Positions 2,512 to 64,000 of a DNA stretch of 64,000 nucleotides are shown here, in pieces. This DNA is from a virus. A program made the translations under genes and the position numbers. The DNA lies in the IMG/VR virus record IMGVR_UViG_3300045988_067909; one strand, written 5' to 3'. Each line of letters begins with the position of its first letter. The stretch's first letter is position 1. The notes beneath the pieces were generated by a model, which was not told the origin of the DNA, made no database searches, and saw nothing but the letters and a program-made list of their open reading frames with translations.

Positions 2512-2626
2512 TTCCTCCTTGTTAATAAATATATAGAAAATTACCTAGGTGTTTGGGGCACTGTAATTGTCTACACAATACCCATGTACACACCTTTATA
2601 TTATATAACCATAAAACTCTTTGGCT

Positions 2627-8799: not shown

Positions 8800-9072
8800 A
8801 TGGAGATTATGAATGCTCCTGTATGGTATATGGTAGCCCTACGATACTTTAAATACCAAGAACGTGTAACTGCTAAAAAGAAACAAAAAGAAGATGATAT
8901 TAAAGCCAAAGCTAAAAAGCAAAGCTTTAATAAGAATAAATACACTGGTAGACAGTTACTAGAGATGGATATAGCCAGAGAAAATGGTCACCATATCCCT
9001 GGTTTCGAAGGATTAACTAGAGACGAAGCTGATGATCTTAATGAACAAATGATGGAAGAAGGTCTCATCTAA
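8800..9072 (+). CDS. Small protein (90 aa) immediately upstream of and overlapping the radical SAM gene
   Basis: Its stop overlaps the start of the next gene (TAATG); basic, K-rich middle and acidic C-terminus; weak SD, so uncertain. Confidence 0.4.
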   Translation: MEIMNAPVWYMVALRYFKYQERVTAKKKQKEDDIKAKAKKQSFNKNKYTGRQLLEMDIARENGHHIPGFEGLTRDEADDLNEQMMEEGLI

Positions 9073-10487: not shown

Positions 10488-10516
10488 TCCCATAGTCCAC
10501 ATATAGGACTATGGGA
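10488..10516 (+). terminator. Hairpin TCCCATAGTCC-acatat-AGGACTATGGGA
   Basis: 11-12 bp perfect stem after the 107-aa gene; the first ATG of the next ORF lies inside it. Confidence 0.45.
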
Positions 10517-10552
10517 TTTCTACATATTAATAACTACGGAGGTTATAAAAAT

Positions 10553-12232
10553 ATGGCAGATAAACTTAGAGGAGATCATTTAGAGGTCTCTTTATTAGAT
10601 ATGGATGACTTCGTAAAGAAGAATAATCTACAACCTATAACGAATCCTATATTTTTTGATGTGAATGGTAATCCAACTGATGATGGATTACTATCTAATA
10701 TCATCTTTGGTATTACTAAGCAAACACGTGCTGGTACTTTTGCTTATATTGATTTACATGGTAGATTCTTAGCACCATTGGTATACAAGATCTGGGGTAA
10801 GATTGATCGTAAACTAAAAGAAATTGTTAAAGGTACTAAGTTCTTTAAAATAGATTCGGATGGTCAATTTGTTGAAGATGAGAATGGTGAAACTGGTTTA
10901 GACTTCTTATATAAGAATATAGACAAGGTTAAGTTTAGAGAGACTGGTTCTACTAAACGTAGTCGTTTTATTAAGTTCTTAGAACGTAACCGTAAGAACT
11001 TCTTCATTACTAAACTATTAATCATTCCACCATACTATCGTGACGTTAAAAGTGATGGTGGTAAAGTCTCAGTTGGTGATATTAATAAGCTATACCAAAA
11101 CGTATTAGTATCAGCTAAGTCTTTAGAAGAATCTAAATACTATGGTATTAATATCGGTGATGCTAATAAGGGACGTATACAAGACTTACTATTAGAAATC
11201 TATAACTGGTTTGGCTCTGGTACAGAGTCTAATCCTAATGGTGGTATTCCTGGTAAGTTTGGTGTATTACGTCGTACTAATATTAGTAAGACTACAGACT
11301 ATGCTACACGTTTAGTTATGTCTTCTCCAAATCTTAAAGTTGAAAATCTTGAAGATATCGAAGCTAACTTAGAATACTCAGTATTACCAATGACTTCAGC
11401 TGCAGCTAACTTCTTCCCATTTGTATTATTCCATATGAGAAGATTCTTTGAAGAGCAATTTGCTGGACGTACAGTATACGAATGTATTGGTTCCAAGGGT
11501 GAAGTCTTATATCCTAGAATAGATGATTGGCAAACGTATTTCAATGATCTAGTTCTTAAGAAAGAGTTAGACCGTTTCATTCATGGTTATTCTGATAGAT
11601 TTAGACCAATAGAAGCACCTATTAGTTCTAAAGAGATGGAACGTATTGGTTATAAGGGTAAAACTTTATACATGAAATTTAAAGCACGTTTTAAACGAGT
11701 TGAAGATATTGCTGAAGATAAAGATTCTGGTGTAGCAAAAGAGCTTCAACGTAAACTAACTTGGTGTGATGTAATCTTTATGGCTGCTACAGAAGCTATA
11801 AAAGATAAAATGATTCTTATATCACGTTTCCCTATAGATACATTCTATAACCAGTTCTCTACTAAATGTAAATTATCATCTACTATTGAAACTGAAAGTA
11901 TAGAATTTGATGGTAAGTTCTATAAGAACTATCCTAAGATTCGTGATGAATACATTGGCACTAATACTGCAAATAAGTTTATTGATACAATGAATATCTG
12001 TAATGCTTATTTGGAATCTATTGGTGGTGACTATGATGGTGATATGGTAACCATCAAAGGCATATTCACAGATGAAGCTAACGCTGAACTTAAAAAGCAA
12101 CTAGAGTCTAATGTCCATTTTATTGACTTAGGTTGTAAAGCAGTAATAGCTAATACTAACGAATGTATCCAAGCATTGTTCTCTTTAACTATGACATTAG
12201 ATGGGGATGTACTTACTGACCCTAAATTTTAA
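10553..12232 (+). CDS. Multisubunit RNA polymerase beta-prime subunit, N-terminal half (split gene)
   Basis: GGDYDGDMV matches the NADFDGD catalytic Mg site. PTDDGLLSNIIFG resembles E. coli PERDGLFCARIFG. AYIDLHGRFLAPLVYKIW resembles GHIELASPTAHIWF. Start moved to the internal ATG with GGAGG 10 nt upstream; the first ATG lies inside the preceding hairpin. Confidence 0.75.
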   Translation: MADKLRGDHLEVSLLDMDDFVKKNNLQPITNPIFFDVNGNPTDDGLLSNIIFGITKQTRAGTFAYIDLHGRFLAPLVYKIWGKIDRKLKEIVKGTKFFKIDSDGQFVEDENGETGLDFLYKNIDKVKFRETGSTKRSRFIKFLERNRKNFFITKLLIIPPYYRDVKSDGGKVSVGDINKLYQNVLVSAKSLEESKYYGINIGDANKGRIQDLLLEIYNWFGSGTESNPNGGIPGKFGVLRRTNISKTTDYATRLVMSSPNLKVENLEDIEANLEYSVLPMTSAAANFFPFVLFHMRRFFEEQFAGRTVYECIGSKGEVLYPRIDDWQTYFNDLVLKKELDRFIHGYSDRFRPIEAPISSKEMERIGYKGKTLYMKFKARFKRVEDIAEDKDSGVAKELQRKLTWCDVIFMAATEAIKDKMILISRFPIDTFYNQFSTKCKLSSTIETESIEFDGKFYKNYPKIRDEYIGTNTANKFIDTMNICNAYLESIGGDYDGDMVTIKGIFTDEANAELKKQLESNVHFIDLGCKAVIANTNECIQALFSLTMTLDGDVLTDPKF

Positions 12233-15458: not shown

Positions 15459-17585
15459 ATGAATAACCTAGCTAATTACGGTATCTATGCTGACTATGTC
15501 TTAGGTAAAGATATAGTCATAGACGTAGAAAAAATTAATATATATAATTGGGAATCTCACTACCAAAGCATTCTAAATATCCTGAAAGATATGATTGAAT
15601 CTGAATTAGTGAGAACTAAAAAGATTGGTGTACGGATTGGTGGTAAAGTTATTAAACTCACATTCGCACACTATATGATTAATATGATCTTCTGGAATAT
15701 CATCGTTAAAGTCGGTGATACTATTAAACCAGAACACTTATTCTTCGATAACTGTATTCCTGGTAGAGCTATCGAAAGCTATATTAATAAACTTATCATT
15801 GGTCCATATAGAGAAATTATTCCATTGAAGACTTTGAATCAAGCTATTGCTGATATGATATTCAATATTAGTTTCGTGGACCAATTTGCACCATTCTTCG
15901 TTAATAGTGTAAACTTACATGACGAAGTTATGATGCTTAAGAATATTCCTGAATATAGAAACCTTATCTATCCTAACTTAGATGAGGTAACTTTATCTGA
16001 ATCTAAGTCTTATGGTAATAAGTTAATTGATAAGATTCAGGATTATGTAAAGAACTCTAAGAAGTATATTGGATATGACCATATCTATGCTAATGCTTTT
16101 AGAGCAAAAGAAACTATCAACCTTAAACAGTTGAGAGAGTTTATGGGATTCATTGGCGCTAAGCCAGATGGTGAGGGTGGTGTATATCCATACATTATCT
16201 CCAATAGCTTTATTACTGGTGGTGTAAATAATAATGTATCCTATTTCATTGAATCTGCTGGTGGACGTATTGCCCAAATCTTAGCTAAAGATAACGTTGG
16301 TGATGCAGGTTACTTTGCACGTCTTCTTGGTCTATTAGCTCAAGAAAGTTATCTCCATGAAGATAAGAACTTCAAATGTGATACTCAAAACTTAATACCT
16401 ATTACGTTTGATAATAAAGTCTTCTTCGATAAGTATATAGACAGATGGTGTCGTCTAGAGCCTAATGGTTTTGATGTACTTATTACTGAAGATAGTTGGA
16501 AAGACCTCAAGGGTAAAACTGTATATCTATATAGTCCAGCTACATGTGCATCTGCTGTACATGGTCATGGTATTTGCTATCGTTGTTATGGTAAGTTAGC
16601 TCATACTAATAATAATATCAATATCGGTAAATTCGCTGCAGAACTTATCAGTAGAGAGTTTACTCAAGTACTATTATCAGCTAAGCATCTTCTTGAAGTT
16701 AAGCTTCAAACTATTGAATGGCCTGCTAAGTTCCAAAAGTACTTTACTATCTTTGATAACCGTATTCTTCCTAAAGAAGAAGTAGATTTATCTAAAGTCA
16801 AGATTCGTATCTATAAAGATAGTATCTCTGAAGATACTACAGATGAAGAATACGATTCTATCCGTGAAGAACGTGAAGATACTGATATCTTAAATGAATA
16901 TATCGATAAGTTCATGATCATCGATGAAGATGGCGGTGAAGAAATCGATATAGACCATGTATCCAAGTTCTATCTTGGTGATATCTTTGGTAGAATGGTT
17001 AACTCTAGTATTCCTGATGATGATAGTGAGTATTTCGATGTACGATTACATGTGGCTAAGAAGAATGCTAAACCATTATTGAATGAAGAAACTCCATTAT
17101 TCTTTATGCGTATTCAAAATAACGAATTAGCTAAAACAATGGAACAAGCTCAACGTATTATCAATATTGCAAGTATAACTCCTAAGTTTACATTACCTGA
17201 AATCATTACTAAGTTTAACGCTACCATCATCGAGGGTGGTCTTAATGTAATGAGTGTACATACTGAAGTTATCATTGCTAACTTAGTTAGAGCGGCTGAT
17301 GATATTATGGGTAAACCTGATTGGTCTTATCCTGAAGCCAAGTATCAATTACTTGCATTAAGCACAGCATTGAGAGAAAATCCATCATTGATTATCTCTT
17401 TAGCTTATGAACGTATTAAAGATACATTGAAGAACCCTAATACATTCTTAAAAGAAACCCCATCTTCTATAGATTACTATTACATGCTTAATCCTCAAGA
17501 GTTCTTAAACCAAGAAGCTAGAGACTTGTCTATAGATGATACTAAGAAAGAAGTCAAGAGCATGTTTGTTAAAGTTGAAGACTAA
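15459..17585 (+). CDS. Multisubunit RNA polymerase beta-prime subunit, C-terminal half (bridge-helix region)
   Basis: SAGGRIAQILAKDNVGDAGYFARLLGLLAQE resembles the E. coli beta-prime bridge helix [38 protein letters not shown]. Confidence 0.65.
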   Translation: MNNLANYGIYADYVLGKDIVIDVEKINIYNWESHYQSILNILKDMIESELVRTKKIGVRIGGKVIKLTFAHYMINMIFWNIIVKVGDTIKPEHLFFDNCIPGRAIESYINKLIIGPYREIIPLKTLNQAIADMIFNISFVDQFAPFFVNSVNLHDEVMMLKNIPEYRNLIYPNLDEVTLSESKSYGNKLIDKIQDYVKNSKKYIGYDHIYANAFRAKETINLKQLREFMGFIGAKPDGEGGVYPYIISNSFITGGVNNNVSYFIESAGGRIAQILAKDNVGDAGYFARLLGLLAQESYLHEDKNFKCDTQNLIPITFDNKVFFDKYIDRWCRLEPNGFDVLITEDSWKDLKGKTVYLYSPATCASAVHGHGICYRCYGKLAHTNNNINIGKFAAELISREFTQVLLSAKHLLEVKLQTIEWPAKFQKYFTIFDNRILPKEEVDLSKVKIRIYKDSISEDTTDEEYDSIREEREDTDILNEYIDKFMIIDEDGGEEIDIDHVSKFYLGDIFGRMVNSSIPDDDSEYFDVRLHVAKKNAKPLLNEETPLFFMRIQNNELAKTMEQAQRIINIASITPKFTLPEIITKFNATIIEGGLNVMSVHTEVIIANLVRAADDIMGKPDWSYPEAKYQLLALSTALRENPSLIISLAYERIKDTLKNPNTFLKETPSSIDYYYMLNPQEFLNQEARDLSIDDTKKEVKSMFVKVED

Positions 17586-25226: not shown

Positions 25227-25889
25227 ATGAGCTTGTTAAAATCAGAGATAGATCATCCATTATTTTTTAGTGATGATGATATATATGTAAACTTTGATAG
25301 ATTTGACCGTGGCAAAGGATTCAACGTGTGTTTTATACTAGGCTATCCAGCATCTGGTAAGACAACACTATCATTTGAATTAGCTAAAAAGCATAATGCT
25401 GAATTATTGAATTTGGACGCTATAATCTATCCACAAAGTATTGATTGGTTAGTCGACTATTGTAAGAAGCACTATAAAACTTTTTATGAGTTTATTAATA
25501 AGAACCCTAAATACCTAAAGTTCATTTATACATGGGCAAGAGTATTTGCTGATGGGGAGAACCCTATGACCCCTGAAAAGAAGCAGCTTACTATTGAGCG
25601 TAGAAGATGGATTATTAAGATAATAGAATTTTGTATTTCTAAATCACATAAGATAGTCATAGAGGGTGTAGATTTGTATCCTATATTTACAATACATCCA
25701 GAATTATGTGAATATCCTATAATTATTAAGGGTACTAGTAAACTTACATCAATGCTCCGATATGTGAAACGAGACCTTGAATCTGGAGTAGGGGTACGAA
25801 ATGTATTAGATCTAATAGAGATGTATGGGCAACAGTCAACCAAGTTAAATGATTTTAGAATAAATATGAGAGTTTTTATGAAAGGATAA
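25227..25889 (+). CDS. P-loop NTPase/kinase (dNMP-kinase or polynucleotide-kinase-like), 220 aa
   Basis: GYPASGKTT (Walker A) near the N-terminus; small size. Confidence 0.55.
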   Translation: MSLLKSEIDHPLFFSDDDIYVNFDRFDRGKGFNVCFILGYPASGKTTLSFELAKKHNAELLNLDAIIYPQSIDWLVDYCKKHYKTFYEFINKNPKYLKFIYTWARVFADGENPMTPEKKQLTIERRRWIIKIIEFCISKSHKIVIEGVDLYPIFTIHPELCEYPIIIKGTSKLTSMLRYVKRDLESGVGVRNVLDLIEMYGQQSTKLNDFRINMRVFMKG

Positions 25890-25892
25890 TAT

Positions 25893-26933
25893 ATGGGATT
25901 CCTTGACGAACTAACTAATTCTATTATCCTTGAAGCAGAGGATAATAAGAAGAAAAAAGATACCCCTGCTGAAGATGATGATACAATGGAACCAGATGTT
26001 CCTGAAGATGGAGATGAAGTTCCAGAAGATGATGACACTAAAGAAGAACCACCAGCAGATGATACAGCTGATGACGACACCGATGATGACGTTGAACCTG
26101 ATGACGGGGACGATGAAGTTCCTACTGATGACGATGATACTGATACCGGTGATGATGGTACAGATGGTGGGGATACTGCAGATGATACACCAGAAGATGA
26201 TGGAGTAGAACCTGACGAAGGTGATGATATTCCAGCTGATGATGACGGTGGGGATATTGCAGATAGAGCTGCTGATGGTGGAGATGATACTGGTGATGAT
26301 ATTGAACCTGATACTACCGAAGACGGTGAAGATGTACCATCCGAAGATGGAGATGATGCTCCAGACGCTGGTACTGACGACACTGGTGATGACACAGGTG
26401 ATGGTGATGATATCGAACCAGATACTGGTGAAGATGGAGATGAAATTCCATCTGAAGATGGTGACGATGTACCTGATGCTGGAGGAGATGACGGTGGAGA
26501 CACTGATGACTCTGGAGATGGTACAGGTGATACTGGTACTGATGATGGTAGTACTGGTGGAGACCCTAAACTAGATACTGATATCAAAGCCATTGAAGAT
26601 AACCTTTTCAACAATCTAAAACCAGAACAGAAAAATATAGCAATAAAAGAACTTAAGACTAGATGGATGGATTTGTATGATCAAATCAATCGATTTATTA
26701 CTAAGATCGATTATATTGCTAAGACCCCAGACAATATCAATATAGTACTACGTGTGACTAAACTTACGCAACAATTACGTGATACAGTTGAACACTATAT
26801 CATTAATACGTTTAGCACTAAGTCCTATATTGAGAATAAGTCTGAGCTATTTTACTCGCTGCTTATATTAGATAGACTTGTCAAACTACTTGCCACTACA
26901 GTTAAAGAAGACGATACAGAAAAAACTGAGTGA
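25893..26933 (+). CDS. Polyacidic repeat protein (Asp/Gly/Thr/Pro/Glu-rich ~200-aa disordered region plus helical C-terminal domain), 346 aa
   Basis: Imperfect tandem protein repeats IEPDTxEDGxxxPSEDGDDxPDAG; the underlying DNA repeats span ~25960-26560. No terminator before the next gene. Confidence 0.7.
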   Translation: MGFLDELTNSIILEAEDNKKKKDTPAEDDDTMEPDVPEDGDEVPEDDDTKEEPPADDTADDDTDDDVEPDDGDDEVPTDDDDTDTGDDGTDGGDTADDTPEDDGVEPDEGDDIPADDDGGDIADRAADGGDDTGDDIEPDTTEDGEDVPSEDGDDAPDAGTDDTGDDTGDGDDIEPDTGEDGDEIPSEDGDDVPDAGGDDGGDTDDSGDGTGDTGTDDGSTGGDPKLDTDIKAIEDNLFNNLKPEQKNIAIKELKTRWMDLYDQINRFITKIDYIAKTPDNINIVLRVTKLTQQLRDTVEHYIINTFSTKSYIENKSELFYSLLILDRLVKLLATTVKEDDTEKTE

Positions 26934-27030
26934 CCAGTCTGCCCTGTTTAGCTAATATAACAATATATTAAAATGCGCTAATTTGAGCATTAATGTTTAA
27001 ATTAAACTATCCTGAAAGGAGACTACAAAT

Positions 27031-29121
27031 ATGCCAGTTGTAGGTAATCAATCTAGCGATGTTGTATCCAGCCGTTCTTTCCATAAAGGTGCTGAATACG
27101 AATTCGCTAATGCCATTGTAGAAATGGCGGAAAATATCGCAAGCGAAACACAAACAGACTTCTTTACTGAGTCTGCTCGTTTAATGCGTAATAAGGACGC
27201 TGCTCGTGCCCTTAAAAACTTCTTCGTAAATGAATCTGCTGATGCAGACGAATTTGCTGACAATCCAGCAGGTCTTCGTGACCACGAAATGATGATGGAA
27301 CAACTTTTCGAAAATGACCGTCAAGGTATCTTGGAATATGCTTCCATCGGTTCTTACAACCCTGTAATGGGTCTTGTGTTACCTTTACACAAAAATATGA
27401 TGATGAATAACGTTTTCGATAAAGGCGTTATTCCTAAAGCTGTAGCTAAAACTCCTAAGTTCACTTTGAGCATGGAAGTGCGCAAAATGATCGGTGTTGA
27501 TGGTACTGAAATCGATATGTTCACAGAACAAAATCGTATTTTCGAATTGATGGAATCTTCTGCTCCTACACGTCGTGTATTCGTAGAAGTTAACCCAACT
27601 AAACCTATCATCCCTGGTGGTGCTGACGAAAAAGCTATGCGTGAATCCTTGAACTTGGCTCTTTATGGTGCTAAAGATGGTTTCAACAAAGCTTATGATG
27701 CATACTCCATTACTACAGCTATCACTGGTATCGTAATCGACGGTACTAACGCTCATGATGGCGATGCTATCGTAGTTGACTCCAAAGCTGTAAATGCTGC
27801 TGGTGAAACTTACAAAACTGTAGGCGTTAAAACTGCAACTAATACTGGTGACTTGGTTATTGCTATTAGCCCTCGTCGTTTCGAACCTGGCTATGGTGAA
27901 TTAGATCGTCAAATCACTACTAAATTCAACTTTGTAAAACCTGGTACTACAGACGTAGTTGAAGGTTACATCACTGGTTACACTAAAAACAATCAATTCA
28001 TGATTTCCTGTGTTGGTTCTGCTGACATCAAAGGTGTAATCATCGATTCCAAACGTGACACTTCCAACGCTATGATCGATACTCCATCCGTACGTTGGGA
28101 TGCTGTAACTCAAATCGTAGAAATCCCTAATGCTAACCCTATCAACGTTCCTATTTCTCCTGAAGAAGTAAAAGACGTTCAAGCATTATACAACGTTGAC
28201 CAATTGTCCAAAACTCTTGGCTTGATCAAAGATGTATTGGGTAACTACAAAGATGACAAAATCCGTAAAGAATTGGACTTGTCTTTCAAAACTATGCCTG
28301 CAGCTAACAAACTTGCAGCTACATTCGACTTCTGCCCACCAGACACTTATAACATGGATCCAGTAAACTGGAGACGTACAATGTTCATGGACCAATTAGA
28401 TATGTATGTAACTACATTGCTCCAAGTATTGAACGATCCTAACGTAACTGTTTCCGTTATCGGTGCTCCTGCATTGATTCGTCGTATTACTCCAGTAGAA
28501 TACACTTACCAATCCCCATCCAGCATTGGTCCTGTAGAATTGGATTACAAACGTACAGTTGTAACTTCCGACAAACGTGTTTACAACTTCGTTTCTTCCG
28601 ATAAACTTCGTAACGATTCCAACTTGATCATCGTATTGAACCCTCGTAACACTGACCGTGTTATCTACACTATTTACGATTATCAATTGTACTTATCCAA
28701 CGAAATCCGTAACAAACAAAACTACGCTCTCCCAGCTGTACATGCGTTTGAACGTTTCCACTTCTTCTCCTATCAACCAGTACAAGGTCGTCTTCGTATC
28801 TTGAACGCTTCCGGTCTTCGTGATACAGTTCAAAATACTAAACCTGTAACTAAAGATTACAACGAACGTTACGACATGAACGATCATGGTTTCTATGATT
28901 CCATCCGTCATGACGGCACTAAAGTTGTATCCCCAACTGGTTACCCTTATCCTGTAAAATATGACTTAGCTTCCAACCCTCATTCCTACTCTGTAGAAGC
29001 TGAATTGACTCCAGCAGCTCAAGCAGCTAAAGCAGAATTGGATGCTATGCGTGCAGCAGGTGTAACTTCTAAAGTTGAACCATTCGAATTGGATCGTGTA
29101 GTTCGTGAAACTGAAAAATAA
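27031..29121 (+). CDS. Abundant virion protein, candidate major capsid protein (696 aa)
   Basis: Strongest highly-expressed codon bias in the window (CGT, TTC, TCC, AAC, GGT); strong SD GAAAGGAG; size typical of jumbo-phage MCPs; follows a scaffold-like acidic protein. Confidence 0.6.
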   Translation: MPVVGNQSSDVVSSRSFHKGAEYEFANAIVEMAENIASETQTDFFTESARLMRNKDAARALKNFFVNESADADEFADNPAGLRDHEMMMEQLFENDRQGILEYASIGSYNPVMGLVLPLHKNMMMNNVFDKGVIPKAVAKTPKFTLSMEVRKMIGVDGTEIDMFTEQNRIFELMESSAPTRRVFVEVNPTKPIIPGGADEKAMRESLNLALYGAKDGFNKAYDAYSITTAITGIVIDGTNAHDGDAIVVDSKAVNAAGETYKTVGVKTATNTGDLVIAISPRRFEPGYGELDRQITTKFNFVKPGTTDVVEGYITGYTKNNQFMISCVGSADIKGVIIDSKRDTSNAMIDTPSVRWDAVTQIVEIPNANPINVPISPEEVKDVQALYNVDQLSKTLGLIKDVLGNYKDDKIRKELDLSFKTMPAANKLAATFDFCPPDTYNMDPVNWRRTMFMDQLDMYVTTLLQVLNDPNVTVSVIGAPALIRRITPVEYTYQSPSSIGPVELDYKRTVVTSDKRVYNFVSSDKLRNDSNLIIVLNPRNTDRVIYTIYDYQLYLSNEIRNKQNYALPAVHAFERFHFFSYQPVQGRLRILNASGLRDTVQNTKPVTKDYNERYDMNDHGFYDSIRHDGTKVVSPTGYPYPVKYDLASNPHSYSVEAELTPAAQAAKAELDAMRAAGVTSKVEPFELDRVVRETEK

Positions 29122-29189
29122 TTGCCACATTCAGTAATACTATGCTGATGGTGAATTAGTATAGCATTCGTGGTTTATTTGTAAAAGAG

Positions 29190-29220
29190 CAGGCCTATAG
29201 ACTGAGAGTCTATAGGCTCA
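29190..29220 (+). terminator. Hairpin GCCTATAGACT-gag-AGTCTATAGGC plus CTCTTTGTTTTC
   Basis: 11-bp perfect stem after the putative MCP gene. Confidence 0.6.
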
Positions 29221-29246
29221 CTCTTTGTTTTCACAAGGGGATAAGA

Positions 29247-30407
29247 ATGGATAAAGCAAAAACAAATTATGATTTTAATGATCTCTTAACTATAATTGAT
29301 TCGTTAAAACAAGATGCTGATCCTGATGTCCTTCGAAACTTTGCATATGAATTAAACATGTTCTTCAGAGATGTCAAATGTGAGGGTGTCTTATACACTA
29401 ATAACACAGACTTAGACTTCTTTGGTGTATACGTACAACCAGTCTTAAAAGAAAAGGATGTATATCCTTTACTTATATCTGATTATACTACTACTATTGA
29501 GAAGTACTATGTAGAACTGGACTCTAAACTATTTAATCCATTGCTAGGTTTGACTAATAGAGAGATCCTCGCTATTATTCTACATGATATAGGTTCAATG
29601 ATTAACTCATCTGGTCCAATAGACCGTGCTGTAAAAGAGATTGATTTATATCTTGACACTACAAATGATGTACTACGTACTACAGACAATGTAAACTATG
29701 TAGCTATTCTTACATTTGGATTGAAAGATTTATTACATAAATTAACCTCAATCTTCACGGCGGACTTGACTAGCAACGTTGCTATTGATGACTTTATTAT
29801 GTCTTGTGGGTTCATTAACGAACTTAATAGTGCTATTAGTAAACTCAAAAAGTTTGGCTACTTAAACATGTTCTCCGAAGGTGGTTCTCCTTCTGCGATT
29901 ATTGCATGGACAATCCGGATCTACAATGATATCAAAGGTCAACGTATCCGTACTATACGTTTACTACGTAAAGCTGCTTCTTACACTCCAGTACGTTTAG
30001 TTAAACGTGAAATGAATCATATGATTACTGCGTTATCTAGAATTGATGATTCTTCTATCTTAGAATCTGTATTTGACGACGTTAAAATGAAATACCAAAG
30101 TATGACCAAGAAATTCACAATGTCTTCTATTAAAGACATTGAGGAAGACTATTATGATTATGCTGTCACTCTTCAAAACGTTAATGACGAGGACGATGCT
30201 CTATTACTCTTGCATAGAATTAATAGTCGTATGAGCGTTATCGATGGTATTCTTAATGACGATAATCCTCAAATCTCTGACAGAGAACGTAAAGCATTCG
30301 CTGATTTATATGAACGATATAACAAATTGCGTAATGACGTTGTAGCTAAGAAAGTATATAAACGTAACTATCGACGTATTTATGTAAACTACGGCGAAGA
30401 TGACTAA
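29247..30407 (+). CDS. Hypothetical protein (386 aa)
   Basis: ORF; SD AAGGGGA. Confidence 0.6.
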   Translation: MDKAKTNYDFNDLLTIIDSLKQDADPDVLRNFAYELNMFFRDVKCEGVLYTNNTDLDFFGVYVQPVLKEKDVYPLLISDYTTTIEKYYVELDSKLFNPLLGLTNREILAIILHDIGSMINSSGPIDRAVKEIDLYLDTTNDVLRTTDNVNYVAILTFGLKDLLHKLTSIFTADLTSNVAIDDFIMSCGFINELNSAISKLKKFGYLNMFSEGGSPSAIIAWTIRIYNDIKGQRIRTIRLLRKAASYTPVRLVKREMNHMITALSRIDDSSILESVFDDVKMKYQSMTKKFTMSSIKDIEEDYYDYAVTLQNVNDEDDALLLLHRINSRMSVIDGILNDDNPQISDRERKAFADLYERYNKLRNDVVAKKVYKRNYRRIYVNYGEDD

Positions 30408-32016: not shown

Positions 32017-33879
32017 ATGCAAATTCTTTCTAATATCGTATCTAAAGATAGTCTACACGAAACTAATCTTAAAACGTTAAAGATTATCCGTGATTCTATA
32101 TTAACTTCTTTTGGTCCTTATGGTAGTGCTACTCAGATTATGCAAACTGACGCTACACCTAAGTTTACTAAAGATGGTAATACTATTCTTAAGAATATTA
32201 AATTCTTAGGTCAAATCGAAAGTAGTCTAGCAGACATTATGGTTGATTTGACTAATAACGTTGTCAAAGAAGTAGGTGATGGCACCACCTCTGCAACACT
32301 TCTTGCATACAACATTTACAAACGTTTTGTTACCAAAGAAGAACCTAACTTCATGGCAACAAATGGAGCGGGAAATATCAAGATTTATGATGATGAGCTT
32401 AATAATGTACCACCAGTTATGATTGAACGTACATTCAAAGCTATCGTAAAAGAGATTAATGAACTTATTGTATCTCGAGCTAAAGAAGCTACTCCTGATG
32501 ATATGTATCGTATTGCTAAAATCTCTACTAATGGTGATGAAGACTTATCTCTTATCATCGCTAATATCTACAAAGAGATGGGTAATGAAGTATTTATCAC
32601 AGTTAAACACTCTTCTATCGATGAAGACTATACTCGCACATATGACGGTATGACTATTAACACTGGTTATGGTGATAAAGTCTATGTAAATAACAAAGAA
32701 GGATTTGCTGAATTGAACCATCCACAAATCTACTTCTTTGAAGACCCTGTAGATACACCAGAAATGATTGGTTATGTACAAAATATTATCATGCGTAATA
32801 TCATGGATCCAATCAAAGCTAATGATATTAAGGGTATGATTCCAACAGTAATTCTATGTCCTAGAACTACTCGTGATATTGATACTACTATGGATGCTGT
32901 AACTGAAGCTATCTATAAATATCGCTCCGCTGGTATTCAAATCCCATTCTTATTTGTACCTAATATTACAGATAAGAATATGATTCTTGATTTAGCACGT
33001 CTATGTAATGCTACAACAATCAAGAAGTATGTAGACTTATCTATTCAAGAAGAAGAACAAAAACAAGGTCTTGCACCAACTAATGAAACAGTACATGATT
33101 TCTTTGGTTGTGCTGATGCTGTAATCTCTGATTTCAGTAAAACTAAGATTATCAATCCTTGTGAAATGTACAAACAAGGTACTACAGAATATAGTGACTT
33201 ATATCAAGGTATGATTGATCATGCTGAACGTGAAGTTGCTGAAGCTAAACGTGATGGTCAAGATGTAAATACTCTTGGTACACTTAAGCGTAGACTTAAC
33301 TCTCTTAAAGCTAATACATTAGACTTATATATTGGTGGGTCTACTCAAGAAGAACGTGATAATCGTTTTGATGCTGCTGAAGATGCTGTATTGAACTGTA
33401 TGTCTGCTGCTATCCATGGGTTCGGTTATGCATCTAACCTTGAAGGATTATTTGCAGCTGAAGATGTATATAAGAAATATGGTAATGCTTTTGATGAAAA
33501 TCCTACATTAGAAGCGGTTATCTCTTCTATTATCTATAACTCTTACTTGGATCTTGTAGCATTGCTATATGGTACTAAACGTTCTGAAATTCATGAAAGT
33601 TATAGTGAATATGAATATCAAGGTATTGTACATCAAATGATGGTTGCAGCTCTAGGTGGTGAAGATAAACTATTACCTAGAATGCCTATTGATATCACTA
33701 CAGGTGAACGTTCTGAAGACGTAGTTACTTCTATTCGTTCTGACATTGCAGTATTGACTATCATTTCCAAATTGATGACTATTCTTATCACATGTAATCA
33801 GTTCTTAACTCCAGAGGCTTCGAATAATATGTATGACGCTATACGTGAAATTGAAAAGAAGAAATCTGAAGAAAAATAA
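32017..33879 (+). CDS. Phage-encoded chaperonin (GroEL/thermosome-like), 620 aa
   Basis: VKEVGDGTTSATLLAYNI at aa ~84-100 matches the chaperonin ATP-binding signature (GroEL AGDGTTTATVLA; group II GDGTTS); SD AAGGAGGAAG. Confidence 0.75.
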   Translation: MQILSNIVSKDSLHETNLKTLKIIRDSILTSFGPYGSATQIMQTDATPKFTKDGNTILKNIKFLGQIESSLADIMVDLTNNVVKEVGDGTTSATLLAYNIYKRFVTKEEPNFMATNGAGNIKIYDDELNNVPPVMIERTFKAIVKEINELIVSRAKEATPDDMYRIAKISTNGDEDLSLIIANIYKEMGNEVFITVKHSSIDEDYTRTYDGMTINTGYGDKVYVNNKEGFAELNHPQIYFFEDPVDTPEMIGYVQNIIMRNIMDPIKANDIKGMIPTVILCPRTTRDIDTTMDAVTEAIYKYRSAGIQIPFLFVPNITDKNMILDLARLCNATTIKKYVDLSIQEEEQKQGLAPTNETVHDFFGCADAVISDFSKTKIINPCEMYKQGTTEYSDLYQGMIDHAEREVAEAKRDGQDVNTLGTLKRRLNSLKANTLDLYIGGSTQEERDNRFDAAEDAVLNCMSAAIHGFGYASNLEGLFAAEDVYKKYGNAFDENPTLEAVISSIIYNSYLDLVALLYGTKRSEIHESYSEYEYQGIVHQMMVAALGGEDKLLPRMPIDITTGERSEDVVTSIRSDIAVLTIISKLMTILITCNQFLTPEASNNMYDAIREIEKKKSEEK

Positions 33880-34712: not shown

Positions 34713-34762
34713 GATATAATGATATATTATATCTGTGCACGTATTAGGGAGGTTAATATTAA

Positions 34763-41468: not shown

Positions 41469-41723
41469 ATGAATGATTTAGACCGATTCTTCCTAGAGGA
41501 TCTAGAAGGTGAACTATTTCTAGACGTTCTAAGTGAAGATACTACATTGGATCTATTAATTGACGATACTCATCGTGGTGATGTTGATGTAGATCCTGCA
41601 AGTGATGACTACACAGCTAATTACTTAGATGATGTAGATGATAACAATCTTGATCGTGTTATTGATGGTGAAGAAATCGATGATGACGACGATTACGATG
41701 ATGATTATGATGATTTTTATTAA
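41469..41723 (+). CDS. Small polyacidic protein (84 aa, Asp-rich)
   Basis: SD ATGGAGGT; about 40 percent D/E; C-terminal DDDDDYDDDYDDFY. Confidence 0.6.
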   Translation: MNDLDRFFLEDLEGELFLDVLSEDTTLDLLIDDTHRGDVDVDPASDDYTANYLDDVDDNNLDRVIDGEEIDDDDDYDDDYDDFY

Positions 41724-41741: not shown

Positions 41742-42095
41742 ATGGCTGATGTAATTAGACAAGACTTAGACCGTGATGCTACTGCTGTAATTGATATTGT
41801 TAAATCTGGTAGTGCAGATGATCATGTAGTTGATAATGTTATTGACACCGTAACTGATGCTATCTCTGATGTAGAATTAGATGATACTCATAACGATGGT
41901 GATGACATTGATGCAGTTGAAGGTTTAGAACCTCAAGAGATAGATATCTATGCTGATGATGAAAATGATGCAGCTGAAATCGAATTAATGAATGATGCTG
42001 GTACAGAAGATGATAGTGATACTGATGATGAAGGTGTTACTGAAGAAATCGTTGATGCTGTACAAGAAGCTATGTCTGAACTAGAAGACTTTTAA
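41742..42095 (+). CDS. Small polyacidic protein (117 aa, Asp/Glu-rich)
   Basis: SD AAAGGAG; D/E-rich throughout. Confidence 0.6.
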   Translation: MADVIRQDLDRDATAVIDIVKSGSADDHVVDNVIDTVTDAISDVELDDTHNDGDDIDAVEGLEPQEIDIYADDENDAAEIELMNDAGTEDDSDTDDEGVTEEIVDAVQEAMSELEDF

Positions 42096-42121
42096 TTTTT
42101 TACAAAAAATAAAACAATTAT

Positions 42122-42148
42122 GTAGAAGAGGCTGCGAACCTCTTCTAC
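42122..42148. terminator. Bidirectional hairpin GTAGAAGAGG-ctgcgaa-CCTCTTCTAC
   Basis: 10-bp perfect stem, A-run upstream and T-rich downstream, between convergent genes. Confidence 0.55.
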
Positions 42149-42168
42149 ACATTGTTTTGTTTAGAGTA

Positions 42169-42345
42169 TTATGGTTCTAATCCTTCGATAAAGGATAAGC
42201 AGTCCATATACTCATTATGAGAATAGTTTTTTGAATTACCATTCTCATAATTGTGTACCACAGATAAAGCTAATCTTACTTTTAGTGCAAAATTAGCTTT
42301 ATAACCTGCGTTGAGATTAAAATATCTCATTTGTGCCCCTGTCAT
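42169..42345 (-). CDS. Microprotein A (58 aa) under the duplicated leader
   Basis: True start is at the internal ATG 5 nt after AAAGGAGGTGAT; the ORF-track N-terminal extension MFSTVKGGDP is the translated SD region from a GTG. Confidence 0.55.
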   Translation of the reverse strand: MTGAQMRYFNLNAGYKANFALKVRLALSVVHNYENGNSKNYSHNEYMDCLSFIEGLEP

Positions 42346-42470
42346 AGGATCACCTCCTTTGACGGTGGAGAACACACCGTGTATGGTTATATTTAGATAC
42401 AGCTATTTGCGGTAGCTGTATCTACCATACACATTTATAGTATATAACTATAACTCAGTTTACTTTATAA
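42341..42470 (-). promoter_or_regulatory. Duplicated leader copy A: SD, a conserved 11-bp-arm inverted repeat (42395-42423) and promoter-like AT-rich upstream sequence
   Basis: About 125 bp is near-identical to 42703-42830; the IR AGATACAGCTA-n7-TAGCTGTATCT is conserved while the loop differs. Confidence 0.6.
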
Positions 42471-42524
42471 AAAATAATGGTTCATGGGTAGATGAGTGAA
42501 CACCTACCCATGAAGGTAGTCAAA

Positions 42525-42707
42525 CTACCTTACACCATATTTGTCCATCAGCCTAGCTGATGCACCTCCTCTAACAGGTAGAGGAGATGGGTGTTGTAAA
42601 ACACCAAACTTATCAACGTATGGAATCGATTCAGACTCGATTCTCATACGATCAATGTCTGGGACTAGTTTACACCAGTCCAACATTTTCTCTCTTTCTG
42701 ACGTCAT
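42525..42707 (-). CDS. Microprotein B (60 aa) under the duplicated leader
   Basis: Same SD and leader as microprotein A; unrelated protein sequence. Confidence 0.55.
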   Translation of the reverse strand: MTSEREKMLDWCKLVPDIDRMRIESESIPYVDKFGVLQHPSPLPVRGGASARLMDKYGVR

Positions 42708-42830
42708 AGGATCACCTCCTTTGACGGTGGAGAACACACCGTGTATGGGTAAATTTAGATACAGCTAATTCCGATAGCTGTATCTACCATGCACATTTAT
42801 AGTATGCAATTGTAAAACAGTTTACTTTAA
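42703..42830 (-). promoter_or_regulatory. Duplicated leader copy B with conserved inverted repeat (42757-42785)
   Basis: Near-identical to copy A across SD, IR arms and upstream AT-rich sequence. Confidence 0.6.
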
Positions 42831-42841
42831 CGAAAAGAAAT

Positions 42842-42868
42842 CCCTGTATAGGCATTGCCTATACAGGG
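42842..42868. terminator. Terminator hairpin CCCTGTATAGG-cattg-CCTATACAGGG plus TATTTTTG (TATAGGCAATGCCTATA family; loop variant TTG)
   Basis: 11-bp perfect stem; related core to 32-58, 19229-19255 and 54727-54751. Confidence 0.6.
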
Positions 42869-42882
42869 TATTTTTGTGTTTC

Positions 42883-43851
42883 TTATCGATAGTCGTATTG
42901 TTTTTGGATATCATTAGGAATATAGAATCCTAATGCTTCAGATAATACCATCATAGTTAGTGTAGCTTCACAAGCTGCTGTGATTTTATCCATATCTAAT
43001 GTACCAGATTCAGTAATCATACCATAACCTAGATTAGCTAAAGCTTTCTTAGATAGGTCACGAACCATAGCTTCATATAAACCTACTTTACGAGTATCCA
43101 AACGTTTCTTAATTTGCAATCTACCACGTTGAATAGTAGATTCTTTAATCTCTTCTTCCTCTTCAGCATTAGCTGCTTGGATAGTTGCAACTTTATCTTC
43201 TACGTTTTGTAATACATCTTTGATGTGTTCTTTATCTTCGATATTAGCAATGATGAACTGTTCAATACCATTAGCTACATGAGTTTTTACAGAATCACCA
43301 ATGTCTTGGATTTCTTCTTTGTTTTCATCGGAGTTTACTTTATCAACGAATGTTTCAGTATCATCTGGAGAAACTTTAGGTTCTTCATCTAAGTCATTGG
43401 ATTTTAAAGCTTCTTCATTATCTTCCATGATAGCTTTATGAGTTTCTGTTACATACTTAGCAATTTGTGCAGTGAATGCATTTGTTTTGCTTAATGTAGA
43501 TAGGATTTTATCAGAACCGGTTTGCTCAATGAAATTGGAGATAACTTTGTTTCTAATTACACGGTTATCTTCAGACATCATTGGATAACTAGCAGATGCT
43601 TCGAATAAGATATTCAAAGCTTCAAAGATAAGACCATTACGTACAGAATTAGAGAAGTCTTGACGACGTTTAGTCATTTTACTACGATTAGCAATTTGAT
43701 CATATAGATTACTTGCTACTGCAGATTCATGTACAGGTTGGTATTCTAATTCTTTTAAACCTTTTACAATTTCTTCACGTCTAGCGGATTGTACTGCTTC
43801 AAAAAATAAAGAACCAGATGTAATTCCTCTAGGTTTATTTTTAATATTCAT
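42883..43851 (-). CDS. Hypothetical protein (322 aa)
   Basis: ORF; SD GGAGGTTAATG on the minus strand. Confidence 0.6.
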   Translation of the reverse strand: MNIKNKPRGITSGSLFFEAVQSARREEIVKGLKELEYQPVHESAVASNLYDQIANRSKMTKRRQDFSNSVRNGLIFEALNILFEASASYPMMSEDNRVIRNKVISNFIEQTGSDKILSTLSKTNAFTAQIAKYVTETHKAIMEDNEEALKSNDLDEEPKVSPDDTETFVDKVNSDENKEEIQDIGDSVKTHVANGIEQFIIANIEDKEHIKDVLQNVEDKVATIQAANAEEEEEIKESTIQRGRLQIKKRLDTRKVGLYEAMVRDLSKKALANLGYGMITESGTLDMDKITAACEATLTMMVLSEALGFYIPNDIQKQYDYR

Positions 43852-44875: not shown

Positions 44876-46075
44876 CTAGGCCATTTTAGTTAATAGGTTA
44901 ACGATTTGCTTAGCATCCATGTCTTTATCTTTCTTCAAGGATTTGAATCGTACTAATTCGTATTCATCATCACCTGTATCAAAGATTAAAGCTACAGACT
45001 CTGTAGTTTCATCTACAATACCAATACAGAGTAAGTTGTAGTCAGACATAATCTTTCTAGCTACATTAGATCTGGAAAGGTCAATGTCATTATTCTTTTT
45101 CAATTCTTCAACTTCATCTGTAGTTACTAATAAAGAAGTGATAGCTGTAGCATCATTCTTTTGACGGAAGAATTGATTAAGTTTAGATTTGGTAGCACGT
45201 TGCTCTAAGGCTTTCCACATTTTAGAGGAGGAACCATTACGAGCATTGGAGATAGCATCAACTTTAGCCTTACTCAATGCAAATACAAAGTCTCTCCAGA
45301 AACCAATTTCTTGAGATGTAGCACGGATAAAGTTGAATAAACTAATGGCAGAAGAGTTCTTAGATACAATACGTTGAACGATATCTAAACCAGCTACGTC
45401 GAATAATTTACATTTGATGCCTAAGTATGCAGATGTAGTAATAGGACGTCCAGTAGCTTTAGAGATGAAATTAACTTTCATCATCAATGGCATTTGTAGG
45501 TTAGCCTTATCAAGTTTATCTTGAGTTAATATGATGCTACCAGGTTTATTATCACCACCATTACCATTACGTTTAGCATCAGCTTCTGTAATGATAGTAT
45601 TAGTTAATGGTAAGCTATGTTTTAAGCTGTGTTTGTAGTTTTCATATACAGCTTTAATACCAGGTGTAAACATGGTCATTGCACCAGATTCTTTTGCTAG
45701 TTTATTATTAATAGTAAGATAATCATCTACATCAATACCATCATTAAATTGCATATTGCTATGGATATTCTTAACGTAATCAATAGCATCTGTAGCATTA
45801 GTAATGGCCATAGCAGTTAAAAGCATTTTAACTAAGTTTGCATACTTAGCTTCAAGTGCTTTAGCAATTAGCTCAGCTGTTGCTAATTCCATATTACGGC
45901 TAAACATAACTGGGAATGTAAGTACCAAGTCTTTAGTTGCACTATTAATAGACTTGAAAGACTTATATCCACCAGCTTGAGTCGGTAATAATTTGTCTAA
46001 ACTGAAATCATCAGCGGTTACATTGTCATAGACATTAATGATGTCGCTGAGGATTGATTCTTGAATGTAAGACAT
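44876..46075 (-). CDS. Hypothetical protein (399 aa)
   Basis: ORF; SD AAGGAGGACT. Confidence 0.6.
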   Translation of the reverse strand: MSYIQESILSDIINVYDNVTADDFSLDKLLPTQAGGYKSFKSINSATKDLVLTFPVMFSRNMELATAELIAKALEAKYANLVKMLLTAMAITNATDAIDYVKNIHSNMQFNDGIDVDDYLTINNKLAKESGAMTMFTPGIKAVYENYKHSLKHSLPLTNTIITEADAKRNGNGGDNKPGSIILTQDKLDKANLQMPLMMKVNFISKATGRPITTSAYLGIKCKLFDVAGLDIVQRIVSKNSSAISLFNFIRATSQEIGFWRDFVFALSKAKVDAISNARNGSSSKMWKALEQRATKSKLNQFFRQKNDATAITSLLVTTDEVEELKKNNDIDLSRSNVARKIMSDYNLLCIGIVDETTESVALIFDTGDDEYELVRFKSLKKDKDMDAKQIVNLLTKMA

Positions 46076-46666: not shown

Positions 46667-46794
46667 AACTTTGGAGGGAGAGTTAACTCTAATGAGTTAT
46701 CAGCTAGACTCTTATCTCTTATTCATAGTTATAGTATACAATTAAAGATATCTTTGAAACATCTCTATAATCCTATAAAGAAAGGAGACTGAGA

Positions 46795-58213: not shown

Positions 58214-58249
58214 TGTCTATTACCTCCTATAGTTATAATATATAACTAA

Positions 58250-58663
58250 TTAGGCATTTCCACAATACTTACAATGCACAGAGTTTCTTAGTTTACGTAA
58301 ACATGTATTACATATCGGAGTAGAGAATCCTTTAGGTGGAGATGATTGTGTTTTACCACAGATGATACAAGTAAATGGTAAACGTTCTGCTTTAGCTAAT
58401 CGCTCTAGACAGCTATCACAAAACATTAGTTTCATATCACGTACATCACGTTGGTCTATCTTATGACATGCTTGACATTCAAAATCCCAATATTGTACAT
58501 ACCCTGGGTCTTCATTATCAAACTTACATGTTTCCCAAATACATCTACCATTATTATTTAAGTATACACAAGTTTTTCTTTCACATTTCTCAAACTGTTC
58601 ATAAGGGGGTTGTGTATCACCCTTTAGTTTGTTTTCTTCTGATTGACCGCTACCAAAACTCAT
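58250..58663 (-). CDS. Cys-rich multi-zinc-ribbon protein (137 aa)
   Basis: About 16 Cys arranged as repeated CxxC pairs (CQAC, CDSC, CIIC, CNTC, CKYC). Confidence 0.6.
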   Translation of the reverse strand: MSFGSGQSEENKLKGDTQPPYEQFEKCERKTCVYLNNNGRCIWETCKFDNEDPGYVQYWDFECQACHKIDQRDVRDMKLMFCDSCLERLAKAERLPFTCIICGKTQSSPPKGFSTPICNTCLRKLRNSVHCKYCGNA

Positions 58664-62884: not shown

Positions 62885-64000
62885 CTACAATTCTGGATCC
62901 CAAGGAATACCCATAATATCTTTTACATGTCTACTAAGCTCAATAAGAACTTTATTCATAGCAGCCATAATAAGTACAGAGCCTACCATACGACCATTAA
63001 TGGAATGTGTCGCTAGTAGCGTATGTACTTTTTCGTCTTTACGATATTCACTTACAGGTTCTTTACCTTTAGGGAAGATAGATTTTACTACACCTTTTAA
63101 TGCGGAGTAGTATACTAGTTTATCACCTACACCCATAGTATCATCATACTTCACATAGAATTCAATAAGAACTTTATCTTCAGCATGTTTTAGTTTACCA
63201 GTTGCAGGTAATTTACCAGTAGAATCATATTCTTTTGTAGATATATTCAATTTTTCAAGACGTTTCTTAGTTTTATTGATACTAGATTCATAATCTTCTA
63301 CAGTCTTACGTAATGTAGGAGATAATTCTTCTAATTCATTAGTACGATAAATCTTGATACCTTGTAATACACCAGTTACTTTAGATTTGACTTTAATTTT
63401 ACCTAAATCTCCAGCTTCATCACCATCTAACTTAAGCTTAGCTAAAATATCATTAGATGTTTCATCTTCTGAAGCTATTTGATAAGTGAATAAAGTGTCA
63501 CCCTCTTGTACAGGTGTACCTACTTTAGCAATGAAGTCTACTATATCTTCTTTATTAAGTCTTACGTCTATTTGTAAGACTACATCAGAAGACATATCAC
63601 CAGATAATTTATCAGATATGATAGCGCTATCTTCAAAACCTTCGTCAGTATTCATAATAGCTATCTTTGCTAATGTACCGATATTGTATGATAGATTACC
63701 AGTACCAACGTTATCAGAATAACTGGATTTATCATATGCTACAATATCACCAGGTTTAACTTTAGAACCAACTTTAAGATCAGTATCTAATTTAAGATTA
63801 ACGAAGAAACCACCATCAGAGTTCTTTTCTATACGATTACGTAAGTCAACGTGTTCAACCATATCCTGTTCTGGATATCTAATAATCATATAGTCATCAG
63901 TTAACTCTGTAATTACACCTTTGTATTTAGCTTTAAAAGCAAATGTATCAGATGTCATATAAGGTAATGCTTGGTCTGCACCATTAGTTACTAATAATGG
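62885..64000 (-). CDS. Hypothetical protein, 5' end outside the window (more than 371 aa)
   Basis: The open frame continues upstream of the ORF-track Met to the window edge with no stop. Confidence 0.55.
   Translation of the reverse strand, partial: PLLVTNGADQALPYMTSDTFAFKAKYKGVITELTDDYMIIRYPEQDMVEHVDLRNRIEKNSDGGFFVNLKLDTDLKVGSKVKPGDIVAYDKSSYSDNVGTGNLSYNIGTLAKIAIMNTDEGFEDSAIISDKLSGDMSSDVVLQIDVRLNKEDIVDFIAKVGTPVQEGDTLFTYQIASEDETSNDILAKLKLDGDEAGDLGKIKVKSKVTGVLQGIKIYRTNELEELSPTLRKTVEDYESSINKTKKRLEKLNISTKEYDSTGKLPATGKLKHAEDKVLIEFYVKYDDTMGVGDKLVYYSALKGVVKSIFPKGKEPVSEYRKDEKVHTLLATHSINGRMVGSVLIMAAMNKVLIELSRHVKDIMGIPWDPEL

Follow-up and report, generated by a model that had tools for sequence, protein, structure and literature searches.

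The stretch analysed here, referred to as the window, comprises 64,000 nucleotides (nt) of viral DNA (IMG/VR record IMGVR_UViG_3300045988_067909), and on its minus strand it carries two small open reading frames (ORFs), ORF A and ORF B, each preceded by a copy of the same leader (Table 1). The two copies form a direct repeat of 137 nt with 88% identity and an offset of 362 nt, and each contains a perfect 12-bp inverted repeat, TAGATACAGCTA-n7-TAGCTGTATCTA, with the same arms in both copies and with different loops (TTTGCGG versus ATTCCGA on the plus strand). This inverted repeat has two sites in the 64-kb window where none was expected (100 shuffles). A 41-nt block, CACGGTG..AAAGGAGGTGATCCTATGAC, which ends in AAAGGAGGTGATCCTATG, has the same letters in both copies. 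A preliminary description of the locus had noted the near-identical segments, the inverted repeat with constant arms and differing loops, a strong Shine-Dalgarno (SD) sequence followed by ATG in each copy, and unrelated downstream proteins, and all of these observations held when re-examined (hhalign probability between the two protein families, 0.4%).

The inverted repeat extends outward, in that the flanking GTGTATGG is the reverse complement of CCATACAC and pairs with it, and it forms the upper stem of a larger hairpin of 20 bp (8 + 12 bp) that bulges by 7 nt on one side. A second hairpin (hp2), ACGGTG-n7-CACCGT, adjoins the SD sequence on its 5' side. Intrinsic terminators flank each unit, and the order along the minus strand is terminator, leader B, ORF B, terminator T1, leader A, ORF A and terminator T2, the cassettes being monocistronic and bounded by terminators.

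Table 1. Positions of the elements of the two-cassette locus in the window.
Feature	Position	Strand	Description
Direct repeat	42341-42477 / 42703-42839		137 nt, copies A / B
Inverted repeat	42394-42424 / 42756-42786		perfect 12-bp arms, copies A / B
Outer-stem arm GTGTATGG	42425-42432 / 42787-42794		pairs with CCATACAC
Outer-stem arm CCATACAC	42379-42386 / 42741-42748		pairs with GTGTATGG
Terminator upstream of cassette B	42842-42868		intrinsic, bidirectional (predicted on both strands); ends the gene for a 322-amino-acid (aa) protein
Leader B, promoter half	42793-42839	-	T-run, CGTTAAAGTAAAC upstream element, core ATACTAT-AAATGT, then predicted G(+1) at 42792
Leader B, bulged hairpin	42741-42794	-	outer stem GTGCATGG/CCATACAC; inverted repeat 42775-42786 / 42756-42767; 7-nt loop 42768-42774; 7-nt bulge 42749-42755
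Leader B, hp2	42724-42742	-	ACGGTG-n7-CACCGT, directly 5' of SD
SD sequence and spacer, copy B	42708-42722	-	AAAGGAGGTGAT + CCT
ORF B	42525-42707	-	60 aa, family 2 (MTSEREKML...KYGVR), stop codon included
Terminator T1	42481-42514	-	internal, between cassettes B and A; sense direction only
Leader A, promoter half	42431-42477	-	T-run, AAAGTAAAC, core ATACTAT-AAATGT, then predicted G(+1) at 42430
Leader A, bulged hairpin	42379-42432	-	outer stem GTGTATGG/CCATACAC; inverted repeat 42413-42424 / 42394-42405; loop 42406-42412; bulge 42387-42393
Leader A, hp2	42362-42380	-
SD sequence and spacer, copy A	42346-42360	-	AAAGGAGGTGAT + CCT
ORF A	42169-42345	-	58 aa, family 1 (MTGAQMRYFNL...), stop codon included
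Terminator T2	42119-42151		bidirectional, at the array end; shared with the convergent gene 41742-42095
AR9-type late-promoter motif	42113-42124	+	AACA-ATTATG-TA, pointing antisense into the array; predicted start 42124; hypothetical

Exact copies of the arms were found at 67 loci in IMG/VR, mostly on contigs that reach 267 kb and hold several copies each, and a pattern search that was independent of the repeat recovered additional leader copies with variant arms. More than 115 distinct leader copies were retrieved from public contigs, and three near-complete contigs of ~260 kb carried 7, 10 and 11 copies, respectively, at about six loci, either singly or in tandem. The ~135-bp leader preceded all non-truncated genes of family 1 (the family of ORF A) and family 2 (the family of ORF B) that were checked (94/94), and conversely every leader copy preceded a gene of one of these families and no other type of gene. 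The proposal that two unrelated microproteins share one duplicated regulatory leader is supported by these data as far as the sharing and the two local copies are concerned, but not as a local duplication, since the leader is a dispersed family. A comparison with the Rfam covariance models gave no match in the window at the gathering score and only chance-level matches within 42100-42900.

At the position of the window's locus there are 1, 2, 3 or 4 cassettes depending on the genome, and the unit that is inserted or deleted between genomes with one and two cassettes consists of terminator, leader and ORF, with its two ends immediately behind successive stop codons. Whole cassettes are present in some genomes and missing from others that are otherwise syntenic (loci L147 and L150 versus L148-L156; L167-L174 versus the window). 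In the single-cassette loci L147 and L150, a promoter half of the kind typically seen in the upstream cassette is joined to the downstream half from the second cassette, and these hybrid leaders suggest recombination within the leader.

The window encodes split RNA polymerase (RNAP) beta/beta' homologues (10511-12232, 15459-17585 and 62885-63958), a DNA polymerase, a helicase, a primase, a major head protein and virion proteins. The nearest isolates are the Bacillus jumbo phages AR9/PBS1 (~25% aa identity) and no DNA-level match to the window was found among isolated phages. Judged from its gene content, the owner of the cassettes is an uncultured jumbo phage of the AR9/PBS1 type, with split multisubunit RNA polymerases of its own. 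The late-promoter motif of AR9 is AACA-N6-T(A/G) (PMC5312081), and the 80-nt regions before the genes of the window contain AACA-N6-T[AG] 15 times, 6.5-fold above the window average and mostly before structural genes. Given this enrichment, the distant relative studied here has kept the promoter of the AR9 non-virion RNA polymerase (nvRNAP) and the transcription logic of AR9 applies to it. Motifs of the form AACA-N6-TA were seen 17-93 nt upstream of many genes, e.g. those starting at 27031 (AACAATATATTA) and 40193 (AACAGATAGGTA), and further such sites lie upstream of 44876-46075 (minus strand), 46795, 30537 and 51616.

The early promoters of AR9, which are used by its virion RNA polymerase (vRNAP), follow the consensus aaaTATATATTAT-N6-G, also written AAATATATATTAT-N6-G(+1) (Lavysh et al. 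2017, PMC5312081). A conserved block in the upstream part of the leader, (T/C)ATACTAT(A/T)A-nn-GT-G, matches these promoters in both copies in the window when compared with the set of 39 AR9 promoters in Table S2 of PMC5312081. The leader core ATATACTAT-N6-G is one base off ATATATTAT-N6-G, as can be seen by comparing ATATACTAT-AATTGT-G with the promoter of AR9 g292 (atatattat-aattgt-G), and ATACTAT was conserved in at least 90% of 94 leaders with ATATTAT and TGATAT as rare variants. An upstream element resembling CGT(A)TTAAA is present at a similar distance in both phages, the genes driven are in both cases short and of unassigned function, and the AR9 late motif AACA-N6-TA is used in the same phage. 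The differences are that no shared 50-nt hairpin is reported for the described AR9 early leaders (PMC5312081), that the promoter is here fused to a fixed 85-nt leader serving two protein families only, and that this phage is only ~25% identical at the protein level. By this sequence match the leaders carry a predicted AR9-type vRNAP early promoter, from which the transcription starts given in Table 1 and leaders of 85 nt are predicted. The predicted +1, placed by analogy with AR9, is in both copies the first paired base of the bulged hairpin. A scan for sigma-70 promoters returned nothing at the leaders. The AT-rich promoter-like region of the preliminary description is not of the sigma-70 type but matches the AR9 virion-RNAP early promoter.

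Four other intergenic sites with ATAnTAT-N6-G/A were observed, at 2591-2604 (minus strand), 34724-34737 (plus), 46724-46737 (minus) and ~58233-58250 (minus), none with a hairpin leader, and the leaders of these four early-type candidates were not significantly structured. The candidate before gene 1675-2511 also has a late motif, which suggests that this gene is expressed continuously, as in AR9.

The SD sequence AAAGGAGGTGA is near-perfect and was invariant in 92 of 94 leaders, while the spacing between SD and ATG varied from 5 to 8 nt. The in-frame extension MFSTVKGGDP, which would start at an upstream GTG, was present in only 10 of 94 distinct leaders because this spacing varies and hp2 changes sequence; in 34 of the 94 there was no in-frame start upstream of the ATG and in 45 the sole one was the GTG inside the SD sequence. 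From these patterns the ATG after the SD sequence is taken as the true start, and the apparent shared N-terminus is an artefact of translation, as had been suspected. The spacer almost always contained CC(C/T), which can pair with the GG of the SD sequence (AGGA..UCCU in the predicted fold), making a weak SD-masking hairpin possible. Taken together, we are confident that the repeat belongs to a family-wide leader of early-expression cassettes, in which an AR9-type early promoter, two hairpins and a strong SD sequence serve two orphan microprotein families.

The leaders are far more stable as RNA than expected by chance, since the two 93-nt leaders folded at -41 and -37 kcal/mol with z = -6.7 and -5.6 relative to shuffled sequences. 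The bulged hairpin of leader A alone gave -25 kcal/mol on the sense and -27 kcal/mol on the antisense strand (z about -6.6). Pairwise conservation differed strongly between the parts of the leader, with identities among the 94 leaders of 0.96 for the repeat arms, 0.93 and 0.99 for the 5' and 3' arms of the outer stem, 0.87 for the bulge, 0.68 for hp2 and 0.40 for the loop, which is saturated with changes; that the arms are under selection and the loop is not, as proposed from the two copies in the window, is thus apparent in the whole family. The loop was 7 nt long in 109 of 124 copies and in 92 of 111 distinct repeat/ORF combinations (83-88%), and 4, 6, 8 or 9 nt long in the others (15/124 and 19/111), the ORFs being intact in all of them.

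Compensatory double changes were found in the inverted repeat at five pairs (5 of 11), as 22 double-change cells compared with 1.9 +/- 1.2 in shuffles (0/500), and variants with two or three exchanged pairs were present (AGATGCGACTA/TAGTCGCATCT, AGATATGGTTA/TAACCATATCT and AGATATGGCTA/TAGCCATATCT). RNAalifold on the full leaders recovered the first hairpin with five covarying pairs; it missed hp2, which is variable in length and misaligned by MAFFT and was therefore analysed sequence by sequence. Compensation at five pairs together with a loop that is free in sequence and length indicates a folded single-stranded hairpin and not a rigid dimeric operator, and that the repeat acts as a hairpin is a conclusion that we hold with high confidence. 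In hp2, at least four stem sequences occurred with pairing kept (GTAGAC/GTCTAC, GTAGGA/TCCTAC, ATGGGA/TCCCAT and CGGTG/CACCG), and the non-Watson-Crick pairs on the mRNA strand were 24 G·U versus 2 A·C. Given that pairing is kept through this sequence turnover and that G·U is tolerated on the mRNA strand, hp2 is an mRNA element next to the SD sequence.

The inverted repeat showed the reverse pattern. Among 117 distinct sequences there were 39 non-Watson-Crick cells, of which, on the mRNA strand, 34 were A·C, 4 were G·U and 1 was of another kind, and the outer stem had 9 A·C versus 2 G·U. An A·C mismatch on the mRNA strand is a G·U pair on the opposite (bottom) strand, where 99.6% of the cells were standard pairs. 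Counted as events per site and ORF subfamily the polarity was 24 versus 3, and depending on the count the P value for strand polarity lay between 1×10−5 and 7×10−3, or was 0.03 by the strictest count. The neutral expectation from four-fold degenerate sites of neighbouring genes was 0.48:0.52 and the ORF columns gave a mutation polarity of 1.5-2:1 (at most 0.66); mutation bias was considered as the source of the A·C excess and rejected, as neither of these ratios can explain 24:3. Given the saturated loops, single changes of either kind are under negative selection in the stem, but wobble pairs on the bottom strand much less so. A hairpin acting only in the sense mRNA predicts the opposite polarity, whereas no polarity is expected of a duplex operator or of a symmetric cruciform. 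The balance of this evidence tips slightly towards the bottom strand as the selected strand of the inverted repeat, and there is a clean evolutionary signal that the two adjacent hairpins, the repeat and hp2, are read on opposite strands.

The bottom-strand molecule could be a late antisense RNA. AR9 makes late antisense transcripts (PMC5312081), and the late motif in antisense orientation, AACA-N6-TA, was found in 55 of 89 distinct tails at array ends, compared with 1-20 of 89 at other spacings of the motif and 4 of 33 internal tails. The terminators upstream of first or single cassettes looked bidirectional in 81 of 85 cases and the internal ones in 8 of 22, and the one at 42842-42868 would also stop antisense transcripts leaving the array. 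No antisense promoter was seen by eye within the leader; the scope of a systematic scan for antisense promoters is the antisense strand of the cassette over its whole length. The repeat as an antisense intrinsic terminator was rejected as no U-tract follows it. Antisense-pointing late motifs were also observed at the array ends of loci L003-L040 and others.

In the explanation that we propose, the repeat is the expression module of a multicopy microprotein cassette. Each cassette comprises a terminator, the AR9-type early promoter for the virion RNA polymerase, the structured leader of 85 nt, a very strong SD sequence, an ORF of 58-70 aa and a second terminator. The hairpin would fold chiefly in the bottom-strand molecule, most plausibly a late antisense RNA whose AACA-N6-TA promoters would lie at the distal ends of the arrays and which would stop at the bidirectional terminator upstream; by pairing with the early mRNAs, this RNA would silence them. 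Fast and locus-specific loop-loop contact could be provided by the 7-nt loops, which are complementary and presented on bulged stems. Both transcripts would then require the hairpin to fold, the antisense one above all, and this need would account for almost frozen arms beside a loop saturated with changes. As a whole, this explanation (an early cassette leader with a hairpin that works on the bottom strand, probably as late antisense RNA) is put forward tentatively, and the identification of the bottom-strand molecule as a late antisense RNA is in itself possible but rather doubtful.

Several points weigh against this interpretation. The substitution events are not fully independent and the polarity falls to 9 versus 2 (P = 0.03) when only distinct site changes are counted; also, correction of quasi-palindromes by template switching could yield "compensatory" changes without selection. 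The antisense motifs at array ends represent only ~4 sequence contexts, i.e. few independent observations, 34 of the 89 array ends have no such motif, and in the window the motif falls within terminator T2, in a tail so rich in T that TGTT is frequent there. The two start sites and the antisense RNA are predicted. The hairpin at the exact predicted mRNA +1 fits a sense 5' stabiliser well, and the bottom-strand signature fits a template-strand DNA hairpin, for which phage N4 provides a precedent, equally well.

A purely sense function would place the hairpin at the 5' end of the mRNA, where together with the strong SD sequence it could protect from 5'-end-dependent RNases or be a site for host RNase III, without any role of antisense RNA or of DNA. 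RNase III processing of early mRNAs is known from T7 or SP82, and 5' stabilisers are known from Bacillota (the aprE leader, the STAB-SD of cryIIIA and SP82 early RNA), where such transcripts are very highly expressed. The leader resembles these stabilisers in having a hairpin at the predicted 5' end, with +1 as its first paired base, and an almost invariant SD sequence with extended complementarity to 16S rRNA, and its stability, the compensatory changes that keep pairing, and monocistronic cassettes bounded by terminators are all compatible with such a role; the unstructured leaders of the other early-type candidates in the window also make the structure an added feature of this family. However, a hairpin in mRNA should tolerate G·U and reject A·C, and the observed numbers in the repeat and in the outer stem are reversed, while hp2 in the same molecules shows the expected sense pattern and the neutral spectrum is symmetric. 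Stabilisers in addition need structure and not a fixed stem sequence, whereas the arms here are 96% identical beside saturated loops. We consider a sense-only function rather unlikely, and the 5' untranslated region stem-loop of the preliminary description is only partly supported: a hairpin starting at the predicted +1 would agree with it, but the mismatch spectrum on the mRNA strand speaks against it. The alternative offered there, a double-stranded palindromic operator at which a dimeric phage or host repressor switches all cassettes together, did not hold up. A perfect 12-bp palindrome with mostly a 7-bp spacer directly downstream of the predicted start, with strongly conserved arms and a free spacer sequence, is what such an operator might look like, but the spacer varies between 4 and 9 nt, at five positions the two half-sites change jointly through compensation, an outer stem with a one-sided bulge is meaningful only in a folded strand, and strand-asymmetric substitutions (24 versus 3 against a neutral ~0.5) are impossible for a symmetric dimer; this makes an operator very improbable.

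The bottom-strand signature would also be expected if the template strand of the DNA extruded a hairpin (cruciform) in supercoiled or entering DNA, which a protein, either the polymerase or a regulator of the virion RNAP, would read in order to switch the cassettes on or off. Precedents are the hairpin promoters of the N4 vRNAP (PMC4496689) and the template-strand recognition by the AR9 nvRNAP (PMC5449584, PMC9209446). N4 likewise has an inverted repeat in early-gene control regions, injects its own RNAP and uses the template-strand hairpin as the functional form, and conserved arms in which some positions covary as long as the stem holds are common to both systems (PMC4496689). The N4 hairpin is, however, 5-7 bp long with a 3-nt loop, is centred at -11, has essential loop purines and is read by a single-subunit RNAP (PMC4496689), whereas the hairpin here has 20 bp and a fully variable 7-nt loop, would by AR9 analogy lie at +1 to +52 downstream of the start, belongs to a phage with a multisubunit, not N4-like, polymerase and is missing from the other early-type promoters in the window. 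A template-strand DNA hairpin is on these grounds unlikely. The bottom-strand folding, the bulged imperfect stem, the variable terminal loop and the arrays of 1-4 small-ORF cassettes that are present or absent between otherwise syntenic genomes also resemble integron attC sites, i.e. the recombination sites of mobile cassettes. The boundaries of the indels lie right after stop codons and not in the hairpin, the sequence contains no GTTRRRY/RYYYAAC core (R-box consensus), no integrase was identified, every cassette here brings a promoter and a terminator of its own, in contrast to those of integrons, and unequal crossing-over between the 135-bp direct repeats suffices for the changes in copy number; an attC-like site is accordingly the least credible of the possibilities and close to excluded.

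Cis-antisense systems that work by kissing hairpins include CopA/CopT of plasmid R1, RNAI/RNAII of ColE1 and hok/sok. The antisense interpretation shares with the CopA/CopT type a target-mRNA leader that carries a loop of 6-7 nt on a bulged stem, sense and antisense loops that are complementary by construction and free to drift in sequence, and an antisense partner whose structure is the more constrained one. It differs in that the proposed antisense RNA would be long (a whole cassette or array) and driven by a late promoter instead of short and constitutive, and in that the loops here have no consistent YUNR motif.

Jumbo phages with their own RNA polymerases have rigid early-promoter motifs before small orphan genes, and to our knowledge almost nothing is known about how these early genes are tuned or shut off. 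We know of no description of either antisense kissing-hairpin silencing or template-strand hairpin control in phiKZ/AR9-like phages. That a hairpin selected on the bottom strand operates in jumbo-phage early leaders, by antisense silencing from late promoters at array ends or by control through a template-strand DNA hairpin, is a suggestion that we make with reserve. The opposite-strand signal of the two hairpins suggests that early genes are controlled by antisense RNA or through the template strand, the element yields an early-promoter consensus that can be tested in an AR9-like lineage which is uncultured and human-associated, and the compact and portable module of promoter, two hairpins and strong SD sequence is nearly frozen by selection while its cargo has diverged to ~25% identity.

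The cargo consists of family 1, which includes ORF A and diverged forms with MxxGC...NY.N.LAERS (58-70 aa), and family 2, which includes ORF B and forms with ...RMRLYHKYGV. Homology between the families was rejected on the hhalign result given above. Neither microprotein had a match in Pfam or in PHROGs. Family 1 formed 259 clusters at 90% identity, none of them annotated, with contigs of up to ~255-270 kb among the matches listed, and a lookup of NCBI names for cluster members showed that none exist. A profile search of 1.84 billion proteins with family 1 returned 9 representatives of the same clade only. In a protein-guided search for distant loci family 1 had no sufficiently conserved stretch and family 2 found the same clade only, so that the leaders sampled here are those of this clade and divergent leaders beyond it are not among them. 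The AlphaFold2 model of family 1 had three helices (predicted local distance difference test score, pLDDT, 77) and no fold match in PDB, and that of family 2 (pLDDT 64) was too poor to use.

The codon-position patterns were those of real coding sequences, with most variation at the third position in the family of ORF B. One subfamily of family 1 (68 aa, MxxxGC) varied equally across codon positions, which suggests that it is under fast or diversifying evolution. Family 2 followed by family 1 was a frequent ordered pair (three ~260-kb contigs), as in the window, and this pairing suggests that the two microproteins work together. Being two orphan families that are often paired, variable in copy number and partly fast-evolving, they are natural candidates for screens for host-takeover or anti-defence functions.

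Convergent with the cassette array lie two genes for very acidic, Asp/Glu-rich small proteins of 84 and 117 aa with internal repeats (41469-41723 and 41742-42095, plus strand), which had no family match. On the other side, a similarity search with the product of the 322-aa neighbour gene gave no match. In the genome collection (GTDB) the repeat matched only at loci L204-L207, on contigs of metagenome-assembled genomes labelled as uncultured Solobacterium sp. (three) and Oscillospiraceae (one), and these labels are a weak hint of a Bacillota host. The sample names in ENA, together with HMP-style ones, suggest human-associated samples.

Elsewhere in the window, a 362-aa ORF with a TTG start (25526-26614, minus strand) overlaps the plus-strand genes 25227-25889 and 25893-26933 and is probably a spurious antisense ORF. 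The phage encodes a GroEL-like chaperonin (32017-33879, plus strand) and a protein with a radical SAM domain (9072-10136, plus strand). A GC-rich island at 26001-30000 (0.38-0.40 versus ~0.33 elsewhere) spans the gene for the major head protein (27031-29121).

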